Source of the DNA: Methanolobus halotolerans
GTDB taxonomy: Archaea > Halobacteriota > Methanosarcinia > Methanosarcinales > Methanosarcinaceae
Reading direction: 5' to 3'
Assembly: GCF_004745425.1 (NCBI RefSeq)
Contig: NZ_PGGK01000004.1
Span: forward strand, 203,434-227,433
Length of the DNA: 24,000 nt
The position numbers and the translations under genes were made by a program. Positions 11,523 to 22,389 of the stretch are shown here, in pieces. How positions within the stretch are numbered: position 1 is the stretch's first letter; every line of letters starts with the position of its first letter. Under the pieces are notes generated by a model. The model was given only the letters and a program-made list of their open reading frames with translations. It was not told the DNA's origin and did not search any database.

Positions 11523-12344
11523 TTACTGTGGTTTCTCGTAGAGCCGGGTCTTGGTCATCAGGTTTCCTTTCTTGGAGTGTGCCTGTCTGAAGACGCTGTC
11601 GTTAGCCTTCTCTATTTCCCTTGCCTCGATTGCCATCTGCGCTGCTGCGCGCATCATCTCGTGACCTGCTGCTGTTGTGAGCGCAACCTGTTCGAGTTCC
11701 TTCATCATGAAGCATGCAGGGAAGTTGATCTTTGCGACCATATCTGCCATATGGAGTGCTGCCAGTCCCTTTGCCTTTGCGTACGGATTGTTGAAACCTG
11801 CTCTCTCTATGCATTTCTCCGGTTTTGCGAGTATGTGCGGAAGTTCAAGTTCCTTACCTTCGTCAGCCATTGCAGTAACCTTGTCGAGTTCTTCCTGAAT
11901 GAGCCTTACAACACCACAGGTTGAAAGGACCTTCATTGCGTCGGAGTTGAATGATGCCATCTCCACAGGGTCGAGGAACTCTGTCTTTGCACCGATGAGC
12001 GGGTCAACGGTCATGATTATATAACCAAAGCCTGCTTCCTCAAGAGCTGCGCGGTCGTCCTTCTTGGTAGGACCGTCGGAAATAACGATGCATGGAACGT
12101 CCTTGTAAAGTTCACGTGCTGCGGTTGGCCCGGGTGCGCTTGAGTTAGGGCTGATCATGACGTAGAAATCAGCATCGAATTTTTTAAGCTCCTCTGTTGC
12201 GGCTGCTTCGTCTTTGCCCATTTTTGGACCGGTTCCGAAAACACGAACAGTGATCCCTTCTCTTGCTGCGATTTCGTCCTGTACCAGATCAATAACCTGG
12301 CTCATACCAAGGTTACCTAGTTTAATGAATCCAATCTTTGCCAT
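11523..12344 (-). CDS. mtd: F420-dependent methylenetetrahydromethanopterin dehydrogenase
   Basis: The 273-aa ORF opens with MAKIGFIKLGNLG, the characteristic Mtd N-terminus. Length and overall sequence are typical of Methanosarcinales Mtd. Confidence 0.95.
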   Translation of the reverse strand: MAKIGFIKLGNLGMSQVIDLVQDEIAAREGITVRVFGTGPKMGKDEAAATEELKKFDADFYVMISPNSSAPGPTAARELYKDVPCIVISDGPTKKDDRAALEEAGFGYIIMTVDPLIGAKTEFLDPVEMASFNSDAMKVLSTCGVVRLIQEELDKVTAMADEGKELELPHILAKPEKCIERAGFNNPYAKAKGLAALHMADMVAKINFPACFMMKELEQVALTTAAGHEMMRAAAQMAIEAREIEKANDSVFRQAHSKKGNLMTKTRLYEKPQ

Positions 12345-12405
12345 GTAAAATCACAGTAGTGCAATGTTCGGAGTAGCATATATTACTTTTGGAATAATAC
12401 CGGCA

Positions 12406-12432
12406 CCTGTATTCAGGAGTAACGGATACAGG
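12406..12432 (-). terminator. Hairpin downstream of the stressosome-like operon (possible terminator)
   Basis: CCTGTAT-N13-ATACAGG is a perfect 7-bp inverted repeat, 25 nt past the histidine kinase stop. An AT-rich segment follows that probably holds the mtd TATA box (GTAATATATGC on the minus strand, about 12376-12386). Confidence 0.35.
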
Positions 12433-12456
12433 ACAAAGCAGGAAAATTTTATTTAA

Positions 12457-13482
12457 TTAACTTACCTGAGCTTTATCGAGCCTGACCCAGAAAGTGCTGC
12501 CCTCTTCAGGAAAATTGCTGTCCACACCAACACTGCCGTTGTGAAGAGTTACAATCTTATGCACAATTGCAAGACCAAGACCTTTCCCCCTGATACTTCC
12601 CTTTTTTGCTTTATCCAGCCTTGAAAAGCGTTTAAATATAAATTCACAGTCCTCCTCGGGAATGCCACTTCCCCGGTCCTTCACACATGCCTGCCATTGA
12701 TCATCTGAGTCTGAGATGGATATTTCCACATGGCTTCCCTTCGGGCTGTACTTGATCGCATTGGATACAAGATTCGCAAAGACCAGTTTTATCGTAGAGT
12801 GCACCAATACAGGATACCGGCCCTCTGTTTCCAGACATATGGTCATTTCCTTTTTTTCGAATTCCGGTGTGAACTCATCTGCAATATTCCTGAGGATCAC
12901 TCCGAGGTCATCCGCTGAAAAATCCAGTCCGGTCACAGAATCAAGTTTGGCAAGTTCCGCTGCCTGTTCTATAATATTGATCAGGTTAATATTACTTTTT
13001 TCAATATTGGAAAGCAAGGACTTCTTCTTTTCATCGTCCTCCAATTCAAGCAGAATGCCGACAAAGCCGTTGATCAGAGATGCAGGATTTAACAGATCAT
13101 GACGCAGGATATCTGCAAAAAGTTCTTTCAACTGGTTAGAATACTGCAGTTCCTCTGAATAGACCATAAGTTCCTGCTTGTTCTTTTCCAGATCCTCGAT
13201 CCATCGCCTGAAAGCAAGTCCATAAGCCATCATGACTTCTACAAGAGGTGTTGAAAGGAAACCTACTGACTCCATCATTCTCTTGGGAGGAAGTTCAGTG
13301 GTCAATCTTGAAACTGCAGTTTCATGCAACTCGATGATATCTTCTGGAGGAACGTTGAATTTTACCAGTTCATAACCCAGATCTTCAGATCTCATAAGAT
13401 ACTTTTCTTCATGTGTCTCGACATAACCCCTTAAAATCTTATAATACCTGTCTTTGAATTCCGTTTTTGTAATATTCATCAC
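12457..13482 (-). CDS. Soluble sensor histidine kinase with RsbU-N-terminal-like (RsbT-binding) domain + HisKA + HATPase_c
   Basis: N-terminal residues ~8-95 (KDRYYKILRGYVETHEEKYL…VPPEDIIELHETAV…LVEVMMAYGLAF) align well with the B. subtilis RsbU N-domain as remembered (EQRYHQLLSRYI…IPPEEIISIHRKVL…LIEVMIGYGMAY). A coiled coil follows. The H-box is FADILRHDLLNP (His codon 13099-13101). The N-box is ANLVSNAIKY. The G-boxes are DRGSGI and GKGLGLAI. No TM segments. The start is GTG 13482 or ATG 13479, and both overlap the upstream TGA. Confidence 0.9.
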   Translation of the reverse strand: MMNITKTEFKDRYYKILRGYVETHEEKYLMRSEDLGYELVKFNVPPEDIIELHETAVSRLTTELPPKRMMESVGFLSTPLVEVMMAYGLAFRRWIEDLEKNKQELMVYSEELQYSNQLKELFADILRHDLLNPASLINGFVGILLELEDDEKKKSLLSNIEKSNINLINIIEQAAELAKLDSVTGLDFSADDLGVILRNIADEFTPEFEKKEMTICLETEGRYPVLVHSTIKLVFANLVSNAIKYSPKGSHVEISISDSDDQWQACVKDRGSGIPEEDCEFIFKRFSRLDKAKKGSIRGKGLGLAIVHKIVTLHNGSVGVDSNFPEEGSTFWVRLDKAQVS

Positions 13483-14060
13483 CCTGTCATATACACAAGT
13501 ATAGTTGCATCATCTGTCATGCGACCGTGATCCCCGAGTAGTGTTCTGGCCAGTTCCTGTTCATCCTGAAGCAGATACCTATCGTACGCCGAAAGCTTGA
13601 GACTTTCAGGTATACCATCTGTCCACATAAGAAGGAGGTTATCAGGAGATAACTGTGTTCTCTCAATGTGCAAATGCCTGAAACCGCCTCCCACGATACC
13701 CCAGCTTGAAGAAAAGTGAGAAACATCTTCCCCGTAAATCATAGCACGTGTGTTCCCGATACCTCCATACTCAAGGCTGTACTCATTCTGATCCACACGG
13801 ACAATACCCATGGCCACACCTCTTGTTTGTTTGACAGCCCTGTCACATCCCGAAAAGAGAGTATCCAGAGATTCACCGAGATGGGAAGAGACATACCCAA
13901 GAGCAGCTTTTGCAGCTTCCTCTGCATGTATTCCATGACCCAGTCCGTCGATCATACAGAGGGTCAGAAGATCATTTTCAAGCCACCAGTCACACTGGTC
14001 CCCACAATGTACGTCTCCATTGAACGAACGGGATTCCATTGCTATTCGCAAAAATACCAC
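13479..14060 (-). CDS. RsbX-like PP2C/SpoIIE-family serine phosphatase
   Basis: The protein is 186-193 aa. CGD…MIDGLGHG…RG…GIGN…WTDG reproduce the metal-binding motif order of B. subtilis RsbX (CGD, DGLGSG, GNV, TDG), and the size matches. The start is GTG 14060, which overlaps the upstream gene by 19 nt, or ATG 14039, 2 nt after its stop. Confidence 0.85.
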   Translation of the reverse strand: MVFLRIAMESRSFNGDVHCGDQCDWWLENDLLTLCMIDGLGHGIHAEEAAKAALGYVSSHLGESLDTLFSGCDRAVKQTRGVAMGIVRVDQNEYSLEYGGIGNTRAMIYGEDVSHFSSSWGIVGGGFRHLHIERTQLSPDNLLLMWTDGIPESLKLSAYDRYLLQDEQELARTLLGDHGRMTDDATILVYMTG

Positions 14061-14485
14061 AACCTGCTTCTAATACATGTTTTGAAATCGTCAGTTACCA
14101 AAATGTCAAGTTCATCCATCAACCTTTCAACTGCAGGAAGACCTGATCCAAGACCCGGTCCCGTTGAATAACCATCCTGCAAAGCCATATTCACATCCTT
14201 TATCCCCGGACCAGAGTCGATTGAAATAATCTCAATCCCGATGCATCCGTTTTTCCTGATCCCTCTGATAGATATGGTACCACCTGCAGAAGTGTGATAC
14301 ACAAGATTAGAGGCAAGTTCAGATGCTGAAATTGCTGCCTTGAATATGTACAGTTCCGGAAAACCAAGTATCCTTGTGATTGCCCGTACTTTGGTCTGAA
14401 CGTTTGCGACATGAGAGGTCTTTGTTACCTCCACTTTTGCCTCAAGATTCCCTCCAGCAGAACCGGGAGCAGGGATATCAGACAT
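14042..14485 (-). CDS. Second RsbT/RsbW-like GHKL serine kinase (anti-sigma-regulatory-factor family ATP-binding protein)
   Basis: The 147 aa carry an N-box (ELASNLVYH), G1 (DSGPGI), …LQDGYSTGPGLGSGLPAVERLMDE. It is a paralogue of the preceding RsbT-like gene. Its ATG at 14485 overlaps the upstream stop (ATGTCTGA). Confidence 0.85.
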   Translation of the reverse strand: MSDIPAPGSAGGNLEAKVEVTKTSHVANVQTKVRAITRILGFPELYIFKAAISASELASNLVYHTSAGGTISIRGIRKNGCIGIEIISIDSGPGIKDVNMALQDGYSTGPGLGSGLPAVERLMDELDILVTDDFKTCIRSRLWYFCE

Positions 14486-14888
14486 GTGGACGACTCATTT
14501 CCAGATTTATCTTTGTCAATCCGGGCTGCGACTCTATCTGAAAATCATTAACAAGCCTCTTTGCACCGGGGAGGCCTGCACCCAGTCCTCCACCAGTTGT
14601 ATAACCATCTTCCATAGCCTTGTCCACATCAACAATGCCTGGCCCATAATCCTCGATCTCTACTTTAATACATATCTCTGAAGAAGAAGTTCCCGTAACA
14701 ATATGACATACACCTTCTCCTGCATATTTGATCACATTTCTTGTCAGCTCGGAGATCGCAGTGGCCATACGTGTCTGATCAGCAGAGCCAAAGCCTATAT
14801 CAGCCATTTTTTTCCTTGCAGTCTGCCTGGCTATTAGGATGTCATCTTCATTTCGAAGATCTATGCTAATCTCACTTATTTCAATCAA
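14478..14888 (-). CDS. rsbT: RsbT-like stressosome serine kinase (GHKL)
   Basis: The 136 aa read [42 protein letters not shown]…[38 protein letters not shown]. This closely parallels B. subtilis RsbT as remembered (DIVAARQLGRNVAKELGFGTVDQARITTAISELARNIYLYAG…[38 protein letters not shown]). A TTG start overlaps the rsbS stop (TTGATTGA). Confidence 0.9.
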   Translation of the reverse strand: [136 protein letters not shown]

Positions 14889-15246
14889 CCCCTTCGTTGA
14901 ACATTTTTACCAGTTTGTCAAAACCTTTGTCAAGATTCAGTGCGGTATCCACACCGATCAGCTCACGCCCCATTTCAACCAGTGTCAGCGCAACCATTGG
15001 TTGCATGCCACAGAGGACAACCCTTGCACCCATTAGACGTGCCATTCTTGCGGTCTCATTGATGACACGGGCCATGAAAGAGTCGATTATGTCCATTGCC
15101 GTGATGTCTATGACAAGACCTTTAGCACCGCTTTTCTCCAGAGTTGACATGACATCGGACTGGTATTTCAGTGCGTCATCATCGTTCATATCACTCTGTA
15201 TCGAGGTGAGAAGAATATTTTTCAATTTCAGTATTGGAATTTCCAC
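14881..15246 (-). CDS. rsbS: RsbS-like single-STAS-domain stressosome scaffold protein
   Basis: I trimmed the track ORF (to 15324) to GTG 15246, which is preceded by GAGGTGA (15251-15257). That gives 121 aa, the same length as B. subtilis RsbS. IPILKLKNILLTSIQ…GLVIDITAMDIIDSFMARV…MGARVVLCGMQPMVALTLVEMG matches remembered RsbS IPILKLYNCLLVSIQ…GVVIDLTSVDMIDSFIAKV…[22 protein letters not shown]. The phospho-acceptor Ser in IIDSF is conserved (codon 15079-15081). Confidence 0.9.
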   Translation of the reverse strand: MEIPILKLKNILLTSIQSDMNDDDALKYQSDVMSTLEKSGAKGLVIDITAMDIIDSFMARVINETARMARLMGARVVLCGMQPMVALTLVEMGRELIGVDTALNLDKGFDKLVKMFNEGVD

Positions 15247-15260
15247 ATAATCACCTCTGC

Positions 15261-16061
15261 TTACACAAGTTTTCTTCCTACAAGTGTGAAGGCTTTTGAT
15301 ACACCATCTTTTAACGAGCCACATGTGATAATATCACTTAGGTCAACCCCAAGAGTTACAAGAGTCTGGGCAACATTGGGGCTGAAACCGGTTATGATAA
15401 TTTCAGCGCCAAGCATTTTACCCGCACTGACAGTCTTGAGAATATGCTGTGCAACGCTGGTATCGATCATCGGAACACCGGTCACATCAAGTATCGCCAC
15501 GGTGGCTTCGTTCTCAACTATAGATGAAAGGAGATTCTCAATAATCTGCTGGGCACGCATAGTGTCAATCACCCCTACAAGCGGAAGTATTACAATACCT
15601 TCCCAGAGTTTGATAACCGGAGTAGAAAGCTCCATTATAGTTCGGCTGTGTTCCTGAACTTCTTCCTCGATCTTCACCCTCTCGGTAATATCAATGACGT
15701 ACTCGACTCCGCCCACAATATTACCATCCTTATCTCTCAAAGGTGACGCAGTGTATTCGATGGGGAAGGTCTTGCCTCCGGTTGTAATCTCATTTCTCCA
15801 TACATACTTCCTGTCATTTTTCATTGCCTGCTTGACGCGGCAGTTATCTGTTCTGCAATGGGAGGACTGCACAAAGTCATAACACTTCTTACCCTCGACA
15901 TTTTCAAAATCGTCCCCCATCCATTCGCATCCTGTGTTGTTTAAGAACAGTATATTAAAATCCAGATCAACGGCCATCACCATACATGGAAGTTGATTAA
16001 GCACATCCTTTGCAATATCCACATTTTCCACATTATCTGAACTTACATTTTCGTTAACCAT
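15261..16061 (-). CDS. RsbR-like stressosome sensor: N-terminal Cys-rich PAS domain + C-terminal STAS domain
   Basis: 266 aa. Residues ~20-128 look like a PAS fold (…MVMAVDLDFNILFLNNTGCEWMG…GKKCYDF…PIEYTASPLRDKDGNIVGGVEYVIDITERV). Residues ~145-260 are an RsbR-type STAS domain (STPVIKLWEGIVILPLVGVIDTMRAQQI…VAILDVTGVPMIDTSVAQHI…GAEIIITGFSPNVAQTLVTLGVDL). The Thr equivalent to the RsbR phospho-site in V(D)T is present (codon 15459-15461). A GGAGGT SD lies upstream (16065-16074). Confidence 0.9.
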   Translation of the reverse strand: MVNENVSSDNVENVDIAKDVLNQLPCMVMAVDLDFNILFLNNTGCEWMGDDFENVEGKKCYDFVQSSHCRTDNCRVKQAMKNDRKYVWRNEITTGGKTFPIEYTASPLRDKDGNIVGGVEYVIDITERVKIEEEVQEHSRTIMELSTPVIKLWEGIVILPLVGVIDTMRAQQIIENLLSSIVENEATVAILDVTGVPMIDTSVAQHILKTVSAGKMLGAEIIITGFSPNVAQTLVTLGVDLSDIITCGSLKDGVSKAFTLVGRKLV

Positions 16062-16304
16062 CTAATACCTCCTGGTTAAAAACGTGATTAAAAAGCATAA
16101 TACAAGATAATAATATATTATAATATATAATAATTAGCTATATATAAACAGATCACATGCAATCTTTTTTAGCATCAACTCAAAAAAAGGGCTTAGTTTG
16201 AAAGTATTTGTCCGAAAACCTTAAAAGCAATGTGACTTATTTCACATCAATCTCGGCACTTAAATACTGTTTCATGACGGGATTTAAAATCTAGGTTTGA
16301 TCAA
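16062..16304. promoter_or_regulatory. AT-rich divergent intergenic region: probable promoters of the stressosome-like operon (minus) and serB (plus)
   Basis: These 243 nt lie between divergent starts and hold multiple TATA-like elements. There is a 16-bp perfect palindrome ATATATTATAATATAT (16113-16128), TATATAAACA (16141-16150), and an inverted repeat ATGTGA-N6-TCACAT (16230-16247) about 58 nt upstream of serB. Confidence 0.5.
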
Positions 16305-16970
16305 GTGAGTAGTACTGACAATTCTGAAGCAAGGATCAAGTTAGTAGTTTTTGATATGGACAGCACCCTGATAGATGCTGAAACCATTGACGAACTTGCA
16401 AAAGTTGCAGGGGTAGGAGAGAAGGTAGCCATGATAACCAAACTGGCTATGAATGGAGAACTCAACTACTCAGAGGCCCTTACTGAGAGAGTGCGTCTTC
16501 TGGAAGGTCTGAACTTTGAAAGGGCAAAAGAAGCCCTGGACAGTATGCCTTTCATGCCTGGCGCAAAAGAGCTGGTCAAATTTTTAAAATCCCATGGATA
16601 CAAAACCGCAATGATATCCGGCGGATTCACCCTTGCTGCAGAGCGTGTGGGTGAAACACTGGGTATGGACCATGTGGTTTCAAACGAACTTCTGATAGAC
16701 AATGGACACATAACAGGGGAGGTCACGGGACCTCTTACAGGAGAAGGATCAAAGGAACCTGTCCTGGAAGAGATCTCCGGTGAATATGGGATAGAACCCG
16801 AAGAGTGTGTTGTGATAGGTGATGGTGCCAATGATATCTGTATCTTCAAAAGAGCCAGATATGCCATAGCATTTAATTCAAAACCTATATTACACGAGCA
16901 CGCCGACATTGTCATCACAGAAAAAGACCTTGAGGCAGTAATACCAGTGATCCAGGCACTGGACCCGTAA
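16305..16970 (+). CDS. serB: Phosphoserine phosphatase (HAD superfamily, SerB)
   Basis: The 221 aa have a GTG start. HAD motif I is VVFDMDSTLI, followed by SGGF, then K…GDGANDI. ETIDELAK…T..AM.GEL.Y.E.L..RV is the SerB cap signature. Confidence 0.9.
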   Translation: MSSTDNSEARIKLVVFDMDSTLIDAETIDELAKVAGVGEKVAMITKLAMNGELNYSEALTERVRLLEGLNFERAKEALDSMPFMPGAKELVKFLKSHGYKTAMISGGFTLAAERVGETLGMDHVVSNELLIDNGHITGEVTGPLTGEGSKEPVLEEISGEYGIEPEECVVIGDGANDICIFKRARYAIAFNSKPILHEHADIVITEKDLEAVIPVIQALDP

Positions 16971-21443: not shown

Positions 21444-21992
21444 TCACCAATACTCTGGTTTATTCAAAGCATCTGCACAAACAACTCTGCCCTTAAATCC
21501 ATCAGTTGTTCCTGTGCTTAGAGAATAGATCATCCATGCACCCGCATGTTCTTCAGGAATTGGATAAGGTGCAGTAAACCCCATACTTGCAGCATCCTGC
21601 TTAAATCCATATTTTGGATAATAGCTTTCAGGTCCGAAAACAAAAACCATTTCAGCACCACTTGCTTTTAATCTATTCAATCCCTCATTAATTAACATTC
21701 CACCAATTCCCTGTCTCTGATGGGTCGGTTTAACTGCCAGAGGTGCAAGAATGTAAACTAATGGAGATGATGTATTTCCATCAATGGCTGCTTTTGTGAA
21801 AAGAATATGCCCTAATGCTTCTTCTTTCTTGAAAGCCAACAAAGATATGACTGGTTCTGCGCTTTTATCTTCCAGAAGCTGAGCTACAAGAACTGCTTCA
21901 TCCTCAGATTCAAAAGCCTCTTTTTCAATTTCCATTACATTGTTAAAATCTGAGTCTTTTGTTTCCCTTATCTGAATATCATCTGTTGACAT
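21444..21992 (-). CDS. GNAT-family N-acetyltransferase (YhbS/COG3153-like)
   Basis: I trimmed the start to ATG 21992 (MSTDDIQIRETKDSDFNNVMEIEKEAF…). The acetyl-CoA motif is V.P..QRQGIGGMLINEGLNRLKASGAE, followed by …YYPKYGF. The track ORF's 25-codon N-terminal extension overlaps the upstream gene. Confidence 0.85.
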   Translation of the reverse strand: MSTDDIQIRETKDSDFNNVMEIEKEAFESEDEAVLVAQLLEDKSAEPVISLLAFKKEEALGHILFTKAAIDGNTSSPLVYILAPLAVKPTHQRQGIGGMLINEGLNRLKASGAEMVFVFGPESYYPKYGFKQDAASMGFTAPYPIPEEHAGAWMIYSLSTGTTDGFKGRVVCADALNKPEYW

Positions 21993-22038
21993 ACCACACC
22001 TTCTTAGTTTAAGCAACGCTAAAAATATCAACAACTTC

Positions 22039-22389
22039 TCATTTTGATTTATGTTTCTGCATCTCACGTTTTGCCATCATGTTGGAGCCAAACGTGTATA
22101 AAAGAATGACGAAACCCAGCCATATAAAGTGCTCTCCTGTTTCAGGCATACCCAGATATTTCAGGGCCAGGCCAATACCAAAGATCACCAGATTGACCAT
22201 ACCTATCTTTTTATTCTTTCTTGCGGTTTCATCATAAAGCTGCTTGTGTACTAGATACTCTTTTTTTTCATCTTTCACGTTTTCACAACCATTGACAGGT
22301 AGGTTATAGAGCCTGTGCTGAAAATCCTTTTGGTAATTTAGAACATCTAACATCCTGGCTTGACAGGCATTTAAATCACCTCTGTCCAC
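22039..22389 (-). CDS. Hypothetical small membrane protein (two predicted TM helices)
   Basis: The 116-aa ORF starts at GTG, or 104 aa from ATG 22353. It has two hydrophobic stretches (IGMVNLVIFGIGLALKYLG; FIWLGFVILLYTFGSNMM) and a K-rich tail. I recognise no family. Confidence 0.5.
   Translation of the reverse strand: MDRGDLNACQARMLDVLNYQKDFQHRLYNLPVNGCENVKDEKKEYLVHKQLYDETARKNKKIGMVNLVIFGIGLALKYLGMPETGEHFIWLGFVILLYTFGSNMMAKREMQKHKSK

Follow-up and report, generated by a model that had tools for sequence, protein, structure and literature searches.

A histidine kinase with an RsbU-type N-terminal domain at the end of a predicted stressosome operon in the methanogenic archaeon Methanolobus halotolerans

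We analysed a stretch of 24,000 nucleotides from the methanogenic archaeon Methanolobus halotolerans (contig NZ_PGGK01000004.1 of NCBI RefSeq assembly GCF_004745425.1, positions 203,434 to 227,433 of the forward strand; hereafter the window), in which an operon of stressosome-type genes ends with a soluble histidine kinase that carries an RsbU-type N-terminal domain (RsbU_N). The window is archaeal and codes for SepRS, Hef, Mtd, a DUF473 protein and further methanogen housekeeping proteins. We consider it likely that the kinase serves as the output of an archaeal partner-switching module of the stressosome type, and that it is gated by a released RsbT-like switch protein which docks on the RsbU_N domain and the adjoining linker.

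Six genes on the minus strand, which overlap or abut one another, are flanked by mtd (11523-12344) and by a HAD hydrolase gene that is transcribed divergently (16305-16970). In the order of transcription they code for an RsbR-like PAS-STAS protein (R; 266 residues, 15261-16061), assigned as sensor and co-antagonist, an RsbS-like single-STAS antagonist (S; 121 residues, 14881-15246), an RsbT-orthologous Ser/Thr switch kinase of the GHKL family (T; 136 residues, 14478-14888), a second GHKL paralogue (T2; 147 residues, 14042-14485), an RsbX-like single-domain PP2C phosphatase which is predicted to act as the reset phosphatase (X; 193 residues, 13479-14060), and the histidine kinase (12457-13482; 341 residues from a GTG at 13482 or 340 residues from an ATG at 13479). 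The stop codon of X (TGA) and the kinase ATG have one base in common in the string TGATG. For S, the mechanically determined open reading frame (ORF) reaches 15324; its start is probably the GTG at 15246, because a GAGGTGAT element is found upstream and orthologues are called at 121 residues. The promoter is presumably located in the AT-rich intergenic stretch (16062-16304) that separates the operon from the HAD hydrolase gene. At the other end, the kinase stop codon is followed by an oligo-T tract and, 112 bp downstream, by the start of mtd.

The kinase is 100% identical to a protein from Methanolobus halotolerans for which NCBI assigns the ATG at 13479 as start and which is annotated merely as 'ATP-binding protein'. 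Three Pfam domains were detected. RsbU_N (PF08673) covers residues 12-90 (13213-13449, minus strand) with an E-value of 3.9e-14 and 53.0 bits against a gathering cutoff of 25.5, the match extending over positions 2-75 of the 75 model positions. HisKA was assigned to residues 119-182 (E 2.3e-6) and the catalytic domain HATPase_c to residues 230-338 (12469-12795, minus strand; E 3.9e-27). When searched with phmmer against sequences of the Protein Data Bank (PDB), the N-terminal 119 residues matched the N-domain chains of Bacillus subtilis RsbU (2J6Z, 2J70, 2J6Y and 1W53) with E-values from 3e-8 to 3.4e-7. The alignment of the two proteins includes PPEDIIELH in the kinase opposite PPEEIISIH in RsbU, and EVMMAYGLAF opposite EVMIGYGMAY. 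The N-terminal region is thus confirmed as a bona fide RsbU_N domain, a predicted helical bundle which would provide a dimerisation and RsbT-docking surface. Four residues of RsbU (E24, Y28, I74 and I78) have been implicated in binding RsbT (PMC12143880). One of these is identical in the kinase (E24), two are replaced conservatively (I74 by Val, I78 by Met) and one is changed (Y28 to Met).

All catalytic boxes of the kinase are intact (H box HDLLNP, N box NLVSNAIKY, G1 box DRGSGI, F box FKRF, G2 box GKGLGL), and the phospho-accepting His128, with its codon CAT at 13099-13101 on the minus strand, is found within the motif RHDLLNP, which starts at residue 127. The kinase core most closely resembles that of other Methanosarcinaceae kinases (45-52% identity). 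An AlphaFold2 monomer model, computed from 46 aligned sequences, has a mean predicted local distance difference test score (pLDDT) of 89.6. Foldseek returned classical histidine kinase cores as its top matches to this model (GacS, ZraS, WalK, HK853, CpxA). In the model, the RsbU_N domain is formed by helices 5-22, 25-40, 45-62 and 65-74 and by the start of a long helix, with pLDDT values of 93-98 over the domain. The long helix (residues 76-146 by DSSP in the numbering of the 340-residue form, equivalent to residues 77-147 of the 341-residue form; 13042-13254, minus strand) is predicted with high confidence to be continuous from the last RsbU_N helix through the linker and the H-box, and thus to include the first DHp helix. 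Its heptad pattern has hydrophobic residues at 69% of the a/d positions in the best register, compared to 41% expected from composition. The distance between the conserved tyrosine of the YG motif at the end of RsbU_N and the phospho-accepting histidine amounts to 41 residues both in the kinase and in a Pirellulaceae homologue, and to 34 residues in two other archaeal groups. This difference of seven residues corresponds to one heptad, which would fit a coiled-coil transmitter.

A preliminary description, made from the sequence alone, had proposed that the first ~95 residues of the kinase resemble RsbU, quoting strings common to both proteins, that a coiled coil and the H-box RHDLLNP follow, that neither a transmembrane segment nor a classical sensor domain is present, and that the gene is the last of its operon. 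Each of these points was borne out. The RsbU likeness is significant in both the Pfam and the PDB search, the quoted strings occur in the alignment, the coiled coil coincides with the long predicted helix, and the position given for the histidine codon is exact. No transmembrane segment was detected in the kinase, the 19-residue Kyte-Doolittle mean peaking at 1.49, and it has no sensor domain of the ligand-binding type.

The upstream genes are homologues of rsbR, rsbS, rsbT and rsbX, apart from T2. R contains a PAS_4 domain (residues 21-129, E 4e-17) followed by a STAS domain (residues 153-240, E 2e-14), and S consists of a STAS domain (E 1.3e-10). Upon alignment with Bacillales sequences, the R motifs MIDTSVA and NVAQT fall into the columns of the phospho-acceptor threonines of RsbR, while the S motif DIIDSF aligns with the serine motif EIIDSF of RsbS. 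We take these columns to be Thr171 and Thr205 of B. subtilis RsbRA and Ser59 of RsbS, respectively. Of these, S59 and T205 are the residues named in the literature (PMC3944199).

The PAS domain of R carries a cysteine triad, GKKCYDFVQSSHCRTDNCRV, with the spacing C-x8-C-x4-C and a histidine (residues ~60-74, window positions 15840-15884, minus strand). Conservation of the triad extends across Methanolobus to Methanosarcina sp. KYL-1 and to a metagenome-assembled genome (MAG) from the deltaproteobacterial group SEEP-SRB2 (locus L017 of our comparison). Its sequence suggests a metal, Fe-S or redox input. We also considered if R might be a LOV photoreceptor and rejected this. The NCBIfam model YtvA_fam scores 103 bits against a cutoff of 250, and R has the sequences GKKCYDF and DNCRVKQ and lacks GxNCRFLQ, presumably the flavin-binding motif of LOV domains. 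The likeness to YtvA_fam reflects the common PAS-STAS architecture.

T has Pfam matches to HATPase_c and HATPase_c_2. It is 47-54% identical to RsbT from Bacillaceae loci by tblastn and 46% identical to the single T protein of a Methanospirareceae locus. In a neighbour-joining tree of 112 GHKL ORFs, which was based on BLOSUM distances and computed without support values, it groups with the GHKL genes that occupy the first position in their loci. We relied on the tblastn comparison and on the tree for its assignment as RsbT orthologue, because a phmmer search of T and T2 against PDB sequences returned no RsbT chain, only weak matches to histidine kinases and SpoIIAB. The N-terminal ARQxxR helix of T retains the equivalents of RsbT R19 and R23; R19, R23 and N24 are the RsbT residues that have been implicated in RsbU binding (PMC12143880). 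X matches SpoIIE (residues 32-188, E 4.8e-7, 30.4 bits against a cutoff of 25) and PP2C_2. By domains and motifs, the four genes thus have the composition of an rsbR-rsbS-rsbT-rsbX stressosome module and, as far as can be judged from sequence, every part of a working partner-switching module is present.

In order to place the operon among its relatives, we scanned GTDB species genomes with a degenerate pattern seeded by four archaeal T proteins. This yielded 378 relatives, the best 80 of which include many rsbT loci from Bacillaceae, and domains were mapped with phmmer probes on all ORFs of 79 rsbT-seeded loci and of additional, separately fetched loci. An RsbU_N-containing ORF occurs at most 3.5 kb downstream of rsbT in 68 of the 77 loci that were long enough to judge. 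In Bacillales this ORF is RsbU itself. Outside of Bacillales, the genes are commonly arranged as R-S-T-T2-X with an RsbU_N effector behind them; according to Pfam, this effector is a histidine kinase in most cases. This arrangement was encountered in Bradyrhizobium, Oxalobacteraceae, Deltaproteobacteria, Planctomycetota, Nitrospiraceae, Gemmatimonadota, Dehalococcoidia and Fidelibacterota. The effectors have the architectures RsbU_N-HisKA-HATPase_c, RsbU_N-PAS-HisKA, RsbU_N-PAS-HisKA_3 and RsbU_N with a histidine kinase and a receiver (REC) domain, and there is one RsbU_N-GGDEF-EAL protein. A Bradyrhizobium protein of 365 residues (RsbU_N-HisKA-HATPase_c) is identical in Pfam architecture to the kinase from the window. 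Three forms occur among archaea. In several Methanolobus species, all six genes recur at the corresponding site. In Methanosarcina species, R-S-T-X precedes a longer RsbU_N kinase, which contains an intervening region of ~125 residues, and the order in a Methanospirareceae MAG is R-S-T-kinase-X. A profile search with the N-domain alignment against a collection of 5.8 billion proteins returned just 14 proteins, the Methanolobus orthologues themselves being absent, probably owing to the word index of the search, and therefore says little about distribution.

We propose the following mechanism. The RsbR-like and RsbS-like proteins would sequester T. Upon a signal, maybe redox, metal or O2, which would be sensed by the Cys-triad PAS domain of R, T would phosphorylate S and R at their conserved Ser/Thr residues and would then be released. 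Free T would dock on the kinase at its dimeric RsbU_N domain and at the linker helix next to it. Docking may rigidify or re-register the continuous coiled coil that leads into the DHp helix, and this change would switch either the autophosphorylation of His128 or the kinase/phosphatase balance. The phosphoryl group would pass to a REC protein whose gene lies elsewhere, most probably a REC-only regulator of the kind typical of Methanosarcinales, while the RsbX-like PP2C protein would reset S and R. In B. subtilis, RsbT activates RsbU by binding to its N-domain and linker and thereby ordering the coiled coil (PMC12143880). Because T is an RsbT orthologue that retains R19 and R23, docking of T is the most reasonable and the best-supported gate; formation of the complex, the interaction between T and the kinase, the direction of the switch and the downstream target are what we infer from sequence.

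Several observations weigh against gating by T. The kinase has a methionine where RsbU has Y28, a key RsbT-contact residue, and the role of T2 is left unexplained. A B. subtilis study from 2025 (PMC11821858) reportedly, to go by its title, deals with stress sensing that is independent of the stressosome but dependent on RsbT, which calls for caution with respect to R as the sensor. No experimental test of any RsbU_N histidine kinase was found in the literature. In Methanolobus sp. ZRKC1 and in two MAGs the RsbU_N kinase occurs alone at the same site between the HAD hydrolase gene and mtd (L002 9572-10960; L005 and L006, 7640-8954), and tblastn did not reveal R, S, T, T2 or X within 8-10 kb of the kinase. 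The RsbU_N region is intact in these kinase-only genomes. Between two of them the ratio of nonsynonymous to synonymous substitution rates (dN/dS), computed from well-aligned N-domain blocks of equal length, is 0.075, a value indicative of purifying selection. With none of the five genes nearby, the N-domain must therefore be valuable without an adjacent rsbT. The corresponding dN/dS values for the kinase core were set aside as unreliable, having been obtained from ungapped 215-codon blocks that include indels in some of the pairs. The intergenic sequence that lies upstream of rsbR in the window directly precedes the kinase in the kinase-only genomes, and their linker is one heptad shorter.

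Two explanations can be considered for the kinase-only genomes: either T is encoded elsewhere, or the N-domain has a role independent of T, such as dimerisation. The latter leads to an alternative in which RsbU_N is just a constitutive dimerisation or scaffold module, the kinase being controlled not by T but by its expression level or another input. The N-domain of RsbU is a known dimerisation domain (PMC12143880), Y28 is not conserved in the kinase, and no ZRKC1 protein was found among the T2 homologues. There is also no ZRKC1 entry among the best 80 of the 378 relatives from the rsbT scan, although it was not established whether the scanned collection includes this genome. However, T may act in trans in genomes of the ZRKC1 type, it keeps the arginines that contact RsbU, and the placement of an RsbU_N effector directly downstream of rsbT or rsbX extends across many phyla (68 of the 77 informative loci). 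We regard a purely structural role of the N-domain as improbable.

T2, which has a Pfam match to HATPase_c_2, is 39% identical to T and its ATP-binding motifs N, G1 and G2 are present. It lacks the equivalent of RsbT R19, and both arginines are absent from the bacterial T2 consensus. In the GHKL tree, the second-position genes from many bacterial phyla and from Methanolobus form one clade apart from the first-position T genes. They are found between rsbT and rsbX in most of the non-Bacillales stressosome loci of the sample (L003, L004, L007-L009, L013-L018, L020, L021, L024-L030, L032, L033, L035, L038 and L055). We found no published description of T2 in the searchable literature, and database labels for it are either 'anti-sigma regulatory factor' or 'RsbT'. 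As archaea, to our knowledge, have no sigma factors, the former label is misleading. T2 represents a conserved clade of paralogues that is apparently undescribed.

It is conceivable, and we put it forward tentatively, that the operon represents a five-protein variant of the stressosome, in contrast to the usual four proteins. T2, as a member of an ancient clade, would be an additional and distinct component of the signalling, such as a second switch or a kinase whose substrate is the output protein, and the methanogen version would connect a Cys-triad PAS sensor for redox, metal or O2 with a His-Asp relay on REC-only regulators. If so, this would be the first tractable archaeal stressosome. 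A more specific idea is that T2 is the partner of the kinase N-domain, alone or together with T, in which case T would phosphorylate R and S while T2 would be a dedicated output switch. The distinct clade, the fixed gene position that is specific to non-Bacillales loci of the order R-S-T-T2-X-RsbU_N effector, the intact ATP-binding motifs and the lack of any published function would be consistent with this. However, RsbU_N effectors are also present where a locus has just one T (L010-L012 from Methanosarcina, L001 from Methanospirareceae, L022 from Lucifugimonas, and all Bacillales loci), so that T2 is not required for the link to RsbU_N, and the absence of the R19 equivalent from T2, and of both arginines from the bacterial consensus, also argues against T2 as the docking protein; we consider this unlikely. 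Equally doubtful is a control of the kinase by covalent Ser/Thr phosphorylation through T and/or T2 with reversal by X and without stable docking, for even if the operon does code for two Ser/Thr kinases and one phosphatase, such control has been proposed for output proteins without RsbU_N whereas a bona fide RsbU_N domain is present here, and the N-domain of RsbU binds RsbT without being phosphorylated (PMC12143880).

The proposed relay requires a receiver protein, and the preliminary description had stated that no receiver-domain gene lies in the 24 kb. This holds: Pfam scans of all substantial ORFs gave no Response_reg match in the window, and phmmer probes with CheY and Spo0F against every stop-to-stop ORF of at least 70 residues were negative as well (the probes served solely for REC detection). 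No REC gene was found in the archaeal loci L001-L013 either. In several bacterial loci (L014-L016, L020, L028, L030, L055), adjacent or fused REC domains occur. For Methanosarcina acetivorans, 53 histidine kinases and 15 regulators, mostly REC-only, have been described, and only about 6-7 of the 53 kinases are in an operon with a regulator (PMC11784639). DNA-binding outputs are rare among archaeal response regulators (PMC5847659). The kinase has no linked regulator, and the weight given to this as a special puzzle was overstated, since the absence of a REC gene at the locus is the usual archaeal, and Methanosarcinales, pattern and unremarkable. Orphan cytoplasmic kinases of M. acetivorans are likewise soluble with no regulator gene nearby, and REC-only proteins encoded elsewhere are their expected route (PMC11784639, PMC5847659). 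The M. acetivorans kinases that have been studied differ in having PAS, GAF or MEDS sensors, none being reported with RsbU_N or with a STAS/RsbT linkage; the terms 'RsbU' and 'stressosome' are absent from that paper (PMC11784639).

The architecture has precedents among bacteria. B. subtilis RsbU (RsbU_N-linker-PP2C) has a homologous N-domain with a helical linker to a dimeric effector domain and is encoded in an operon with rsbR, rsbS and rsbT homologues. The kinase differs from it in having HisKA and HATPase_c in place of PP2C, in the replacement of Y28 by methionine, in its archaeal host and in the absence of an RsbV/RsbW/SigB cascade. Proteobacterial RsbU_N histidine kinases from rsbRSTX operons have the same order of RsbU_N, coiled-coil linker, HisKA and HATPase_c, and the same place after rsbT or rsbX; what sets several of the bacterial kinases apart are the adjacent or fused REC domains mentioned above. 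Heinz et al. (2022) noted rsbRSTX modules 'even in some archaeal species', and considered the presence of RsbU_N in some of the downstream signalling proteins, including HisKA/REC phosphorelays, to be strong evidence for stressosome input (PMC9237108). An AlphaFold2 dimer of one RsbU_N histidine kinase was presented in a 2025 eLife paper (PMC12143880), which is also the source for RsbU activation. Our literature search did not retrieve a paper on an archaeal stressosome.

Two further bacterial systems are instructive. In Moorella thermoacetica, MtG (RsbU_N-GAF-GGDEF) is likewise a stressosome output with RsbU_N in front of a dimeric, non-phosphatase effector. This diguanylate cyclase is controlled via RsbT and the RsbU N-domain (Quin et al. 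2012, as cited in PMC12143880), and it is the only example other than RsbU for which we found experimental support cited. It differs in being bacterial and in its output, which is cyclic di-GMP synthesis rather than His-Asp phosphotransfer. In Vibrio vulnificus, the stressosome (rsbRSTX) is also tied by gene order to a two-component output, VvD1 and VvD2, with no sigma factor involved (PMC9237108). VvD1, however, has no detectable RsbU_N, no RsbT-D1 interaction was detected, and the RsbR sensor is a haem globin rather than a PAS domain (PMC9237108).

The prediction of a stressosome-to-two-component adaptor in the preliminary description was thus right in that an RsbU_N histidine kinase resides in an rsbRSTX-type operon. 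It is not new, having been published for Proteobacteria, and such kinases are the usual output outside of Bacillales in our sample. The locus is a sound and unsurprising archaeal example of an architecture and operon context already described in bacteria; more original are T2, the kinase-only genomes and the Cys-triad PAS sensor. If gating by T applies, the logic of the stressosome, with a small kinase being sequestered and then released onto RsbU_N, would work in a methanogenic archaeon and would drive a histidine kinase, in addition to a phosphatase or cyclase. Being soluble, with 340 residues and no other sensor domain, the kinase would be a minimal model for the published, unproven switching of histidine kinases through RsbT and a coiled-coil linker.

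Several orthologous kinase genes lack a canonical in-frame start at the conserved N-terminus, where only ATT or ATC is available (L003 7990-8010; L002 9959-10001; L005 7956-8001), and gene callers differ in their choices (ATT, ATA, TTG). In L003, the stop codon TGA of rsbX falls into the reading frame of the kinase, three codons ahead of the annotated kinase start. Between kinase-only genomes, even the codons that precede the annotated starts show synonymous differences only.

Adjacency of the kinase gene and mtd is maintained in all Methanolobus loci that were examined. In the window, the 112-bp gap between them (12345-12456) has the oligo-T tract at its start and a TATA-like AATATATG element before mtd, so that mtd probably has its own promoter. 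Co-transcription of, or a functional link between, the two genes was considered and rejected. Because of the oligo-T tract and the AATATATG element, and because mtd is adjacent also in genomes without the stressosome genes, we treat this arrangement as synteny only.

Some of the related loci deserve mention. A Methanosarcinaceae MAG (L013 3808-8708) has an expanded gene set with the order STAS-STAS-GHKL-STAS-STAS-GHKL-GHKL-PP2C-RsbU_N kinase, which resembles a tandem duplication of the module's front half. In the SEEP-SRB2 deltaproteobacterial MAG (L017 4755-8526), the stressosome proteins are close to those of Methanolobus, with T being 53% identical and the Cys triad of R being the same. This hints at a gene transfer between bacteria and Methanosarcinales, whereas the core of the kinase from the window is closest, as stated, to other Methanosarcinaceae kinases. 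Methanosarcina and metagenomes also have stand-alone RsbU_N proteins, as well as proteins with Pfam matches to RsbU_N and PAS, all without a catalytic domain (P0122 from Methanosarcina horonobensis with 120 residues, P0124, P0125 and P0128), and these could be decoys or adaptors for RsbT.

The region upstream of the UbiA gene is variable among Methanolobus genomes (L002 3328-4383, L006 794-1930, L005 1-2130), and the respective segments carry different defence-associated domains in each genome (SduA_C, TIR_2, KAP_NTPase). In the window, the corresponding region (21444-22389) contains a GNAT gene and an unannotated ORF of 116 residues.

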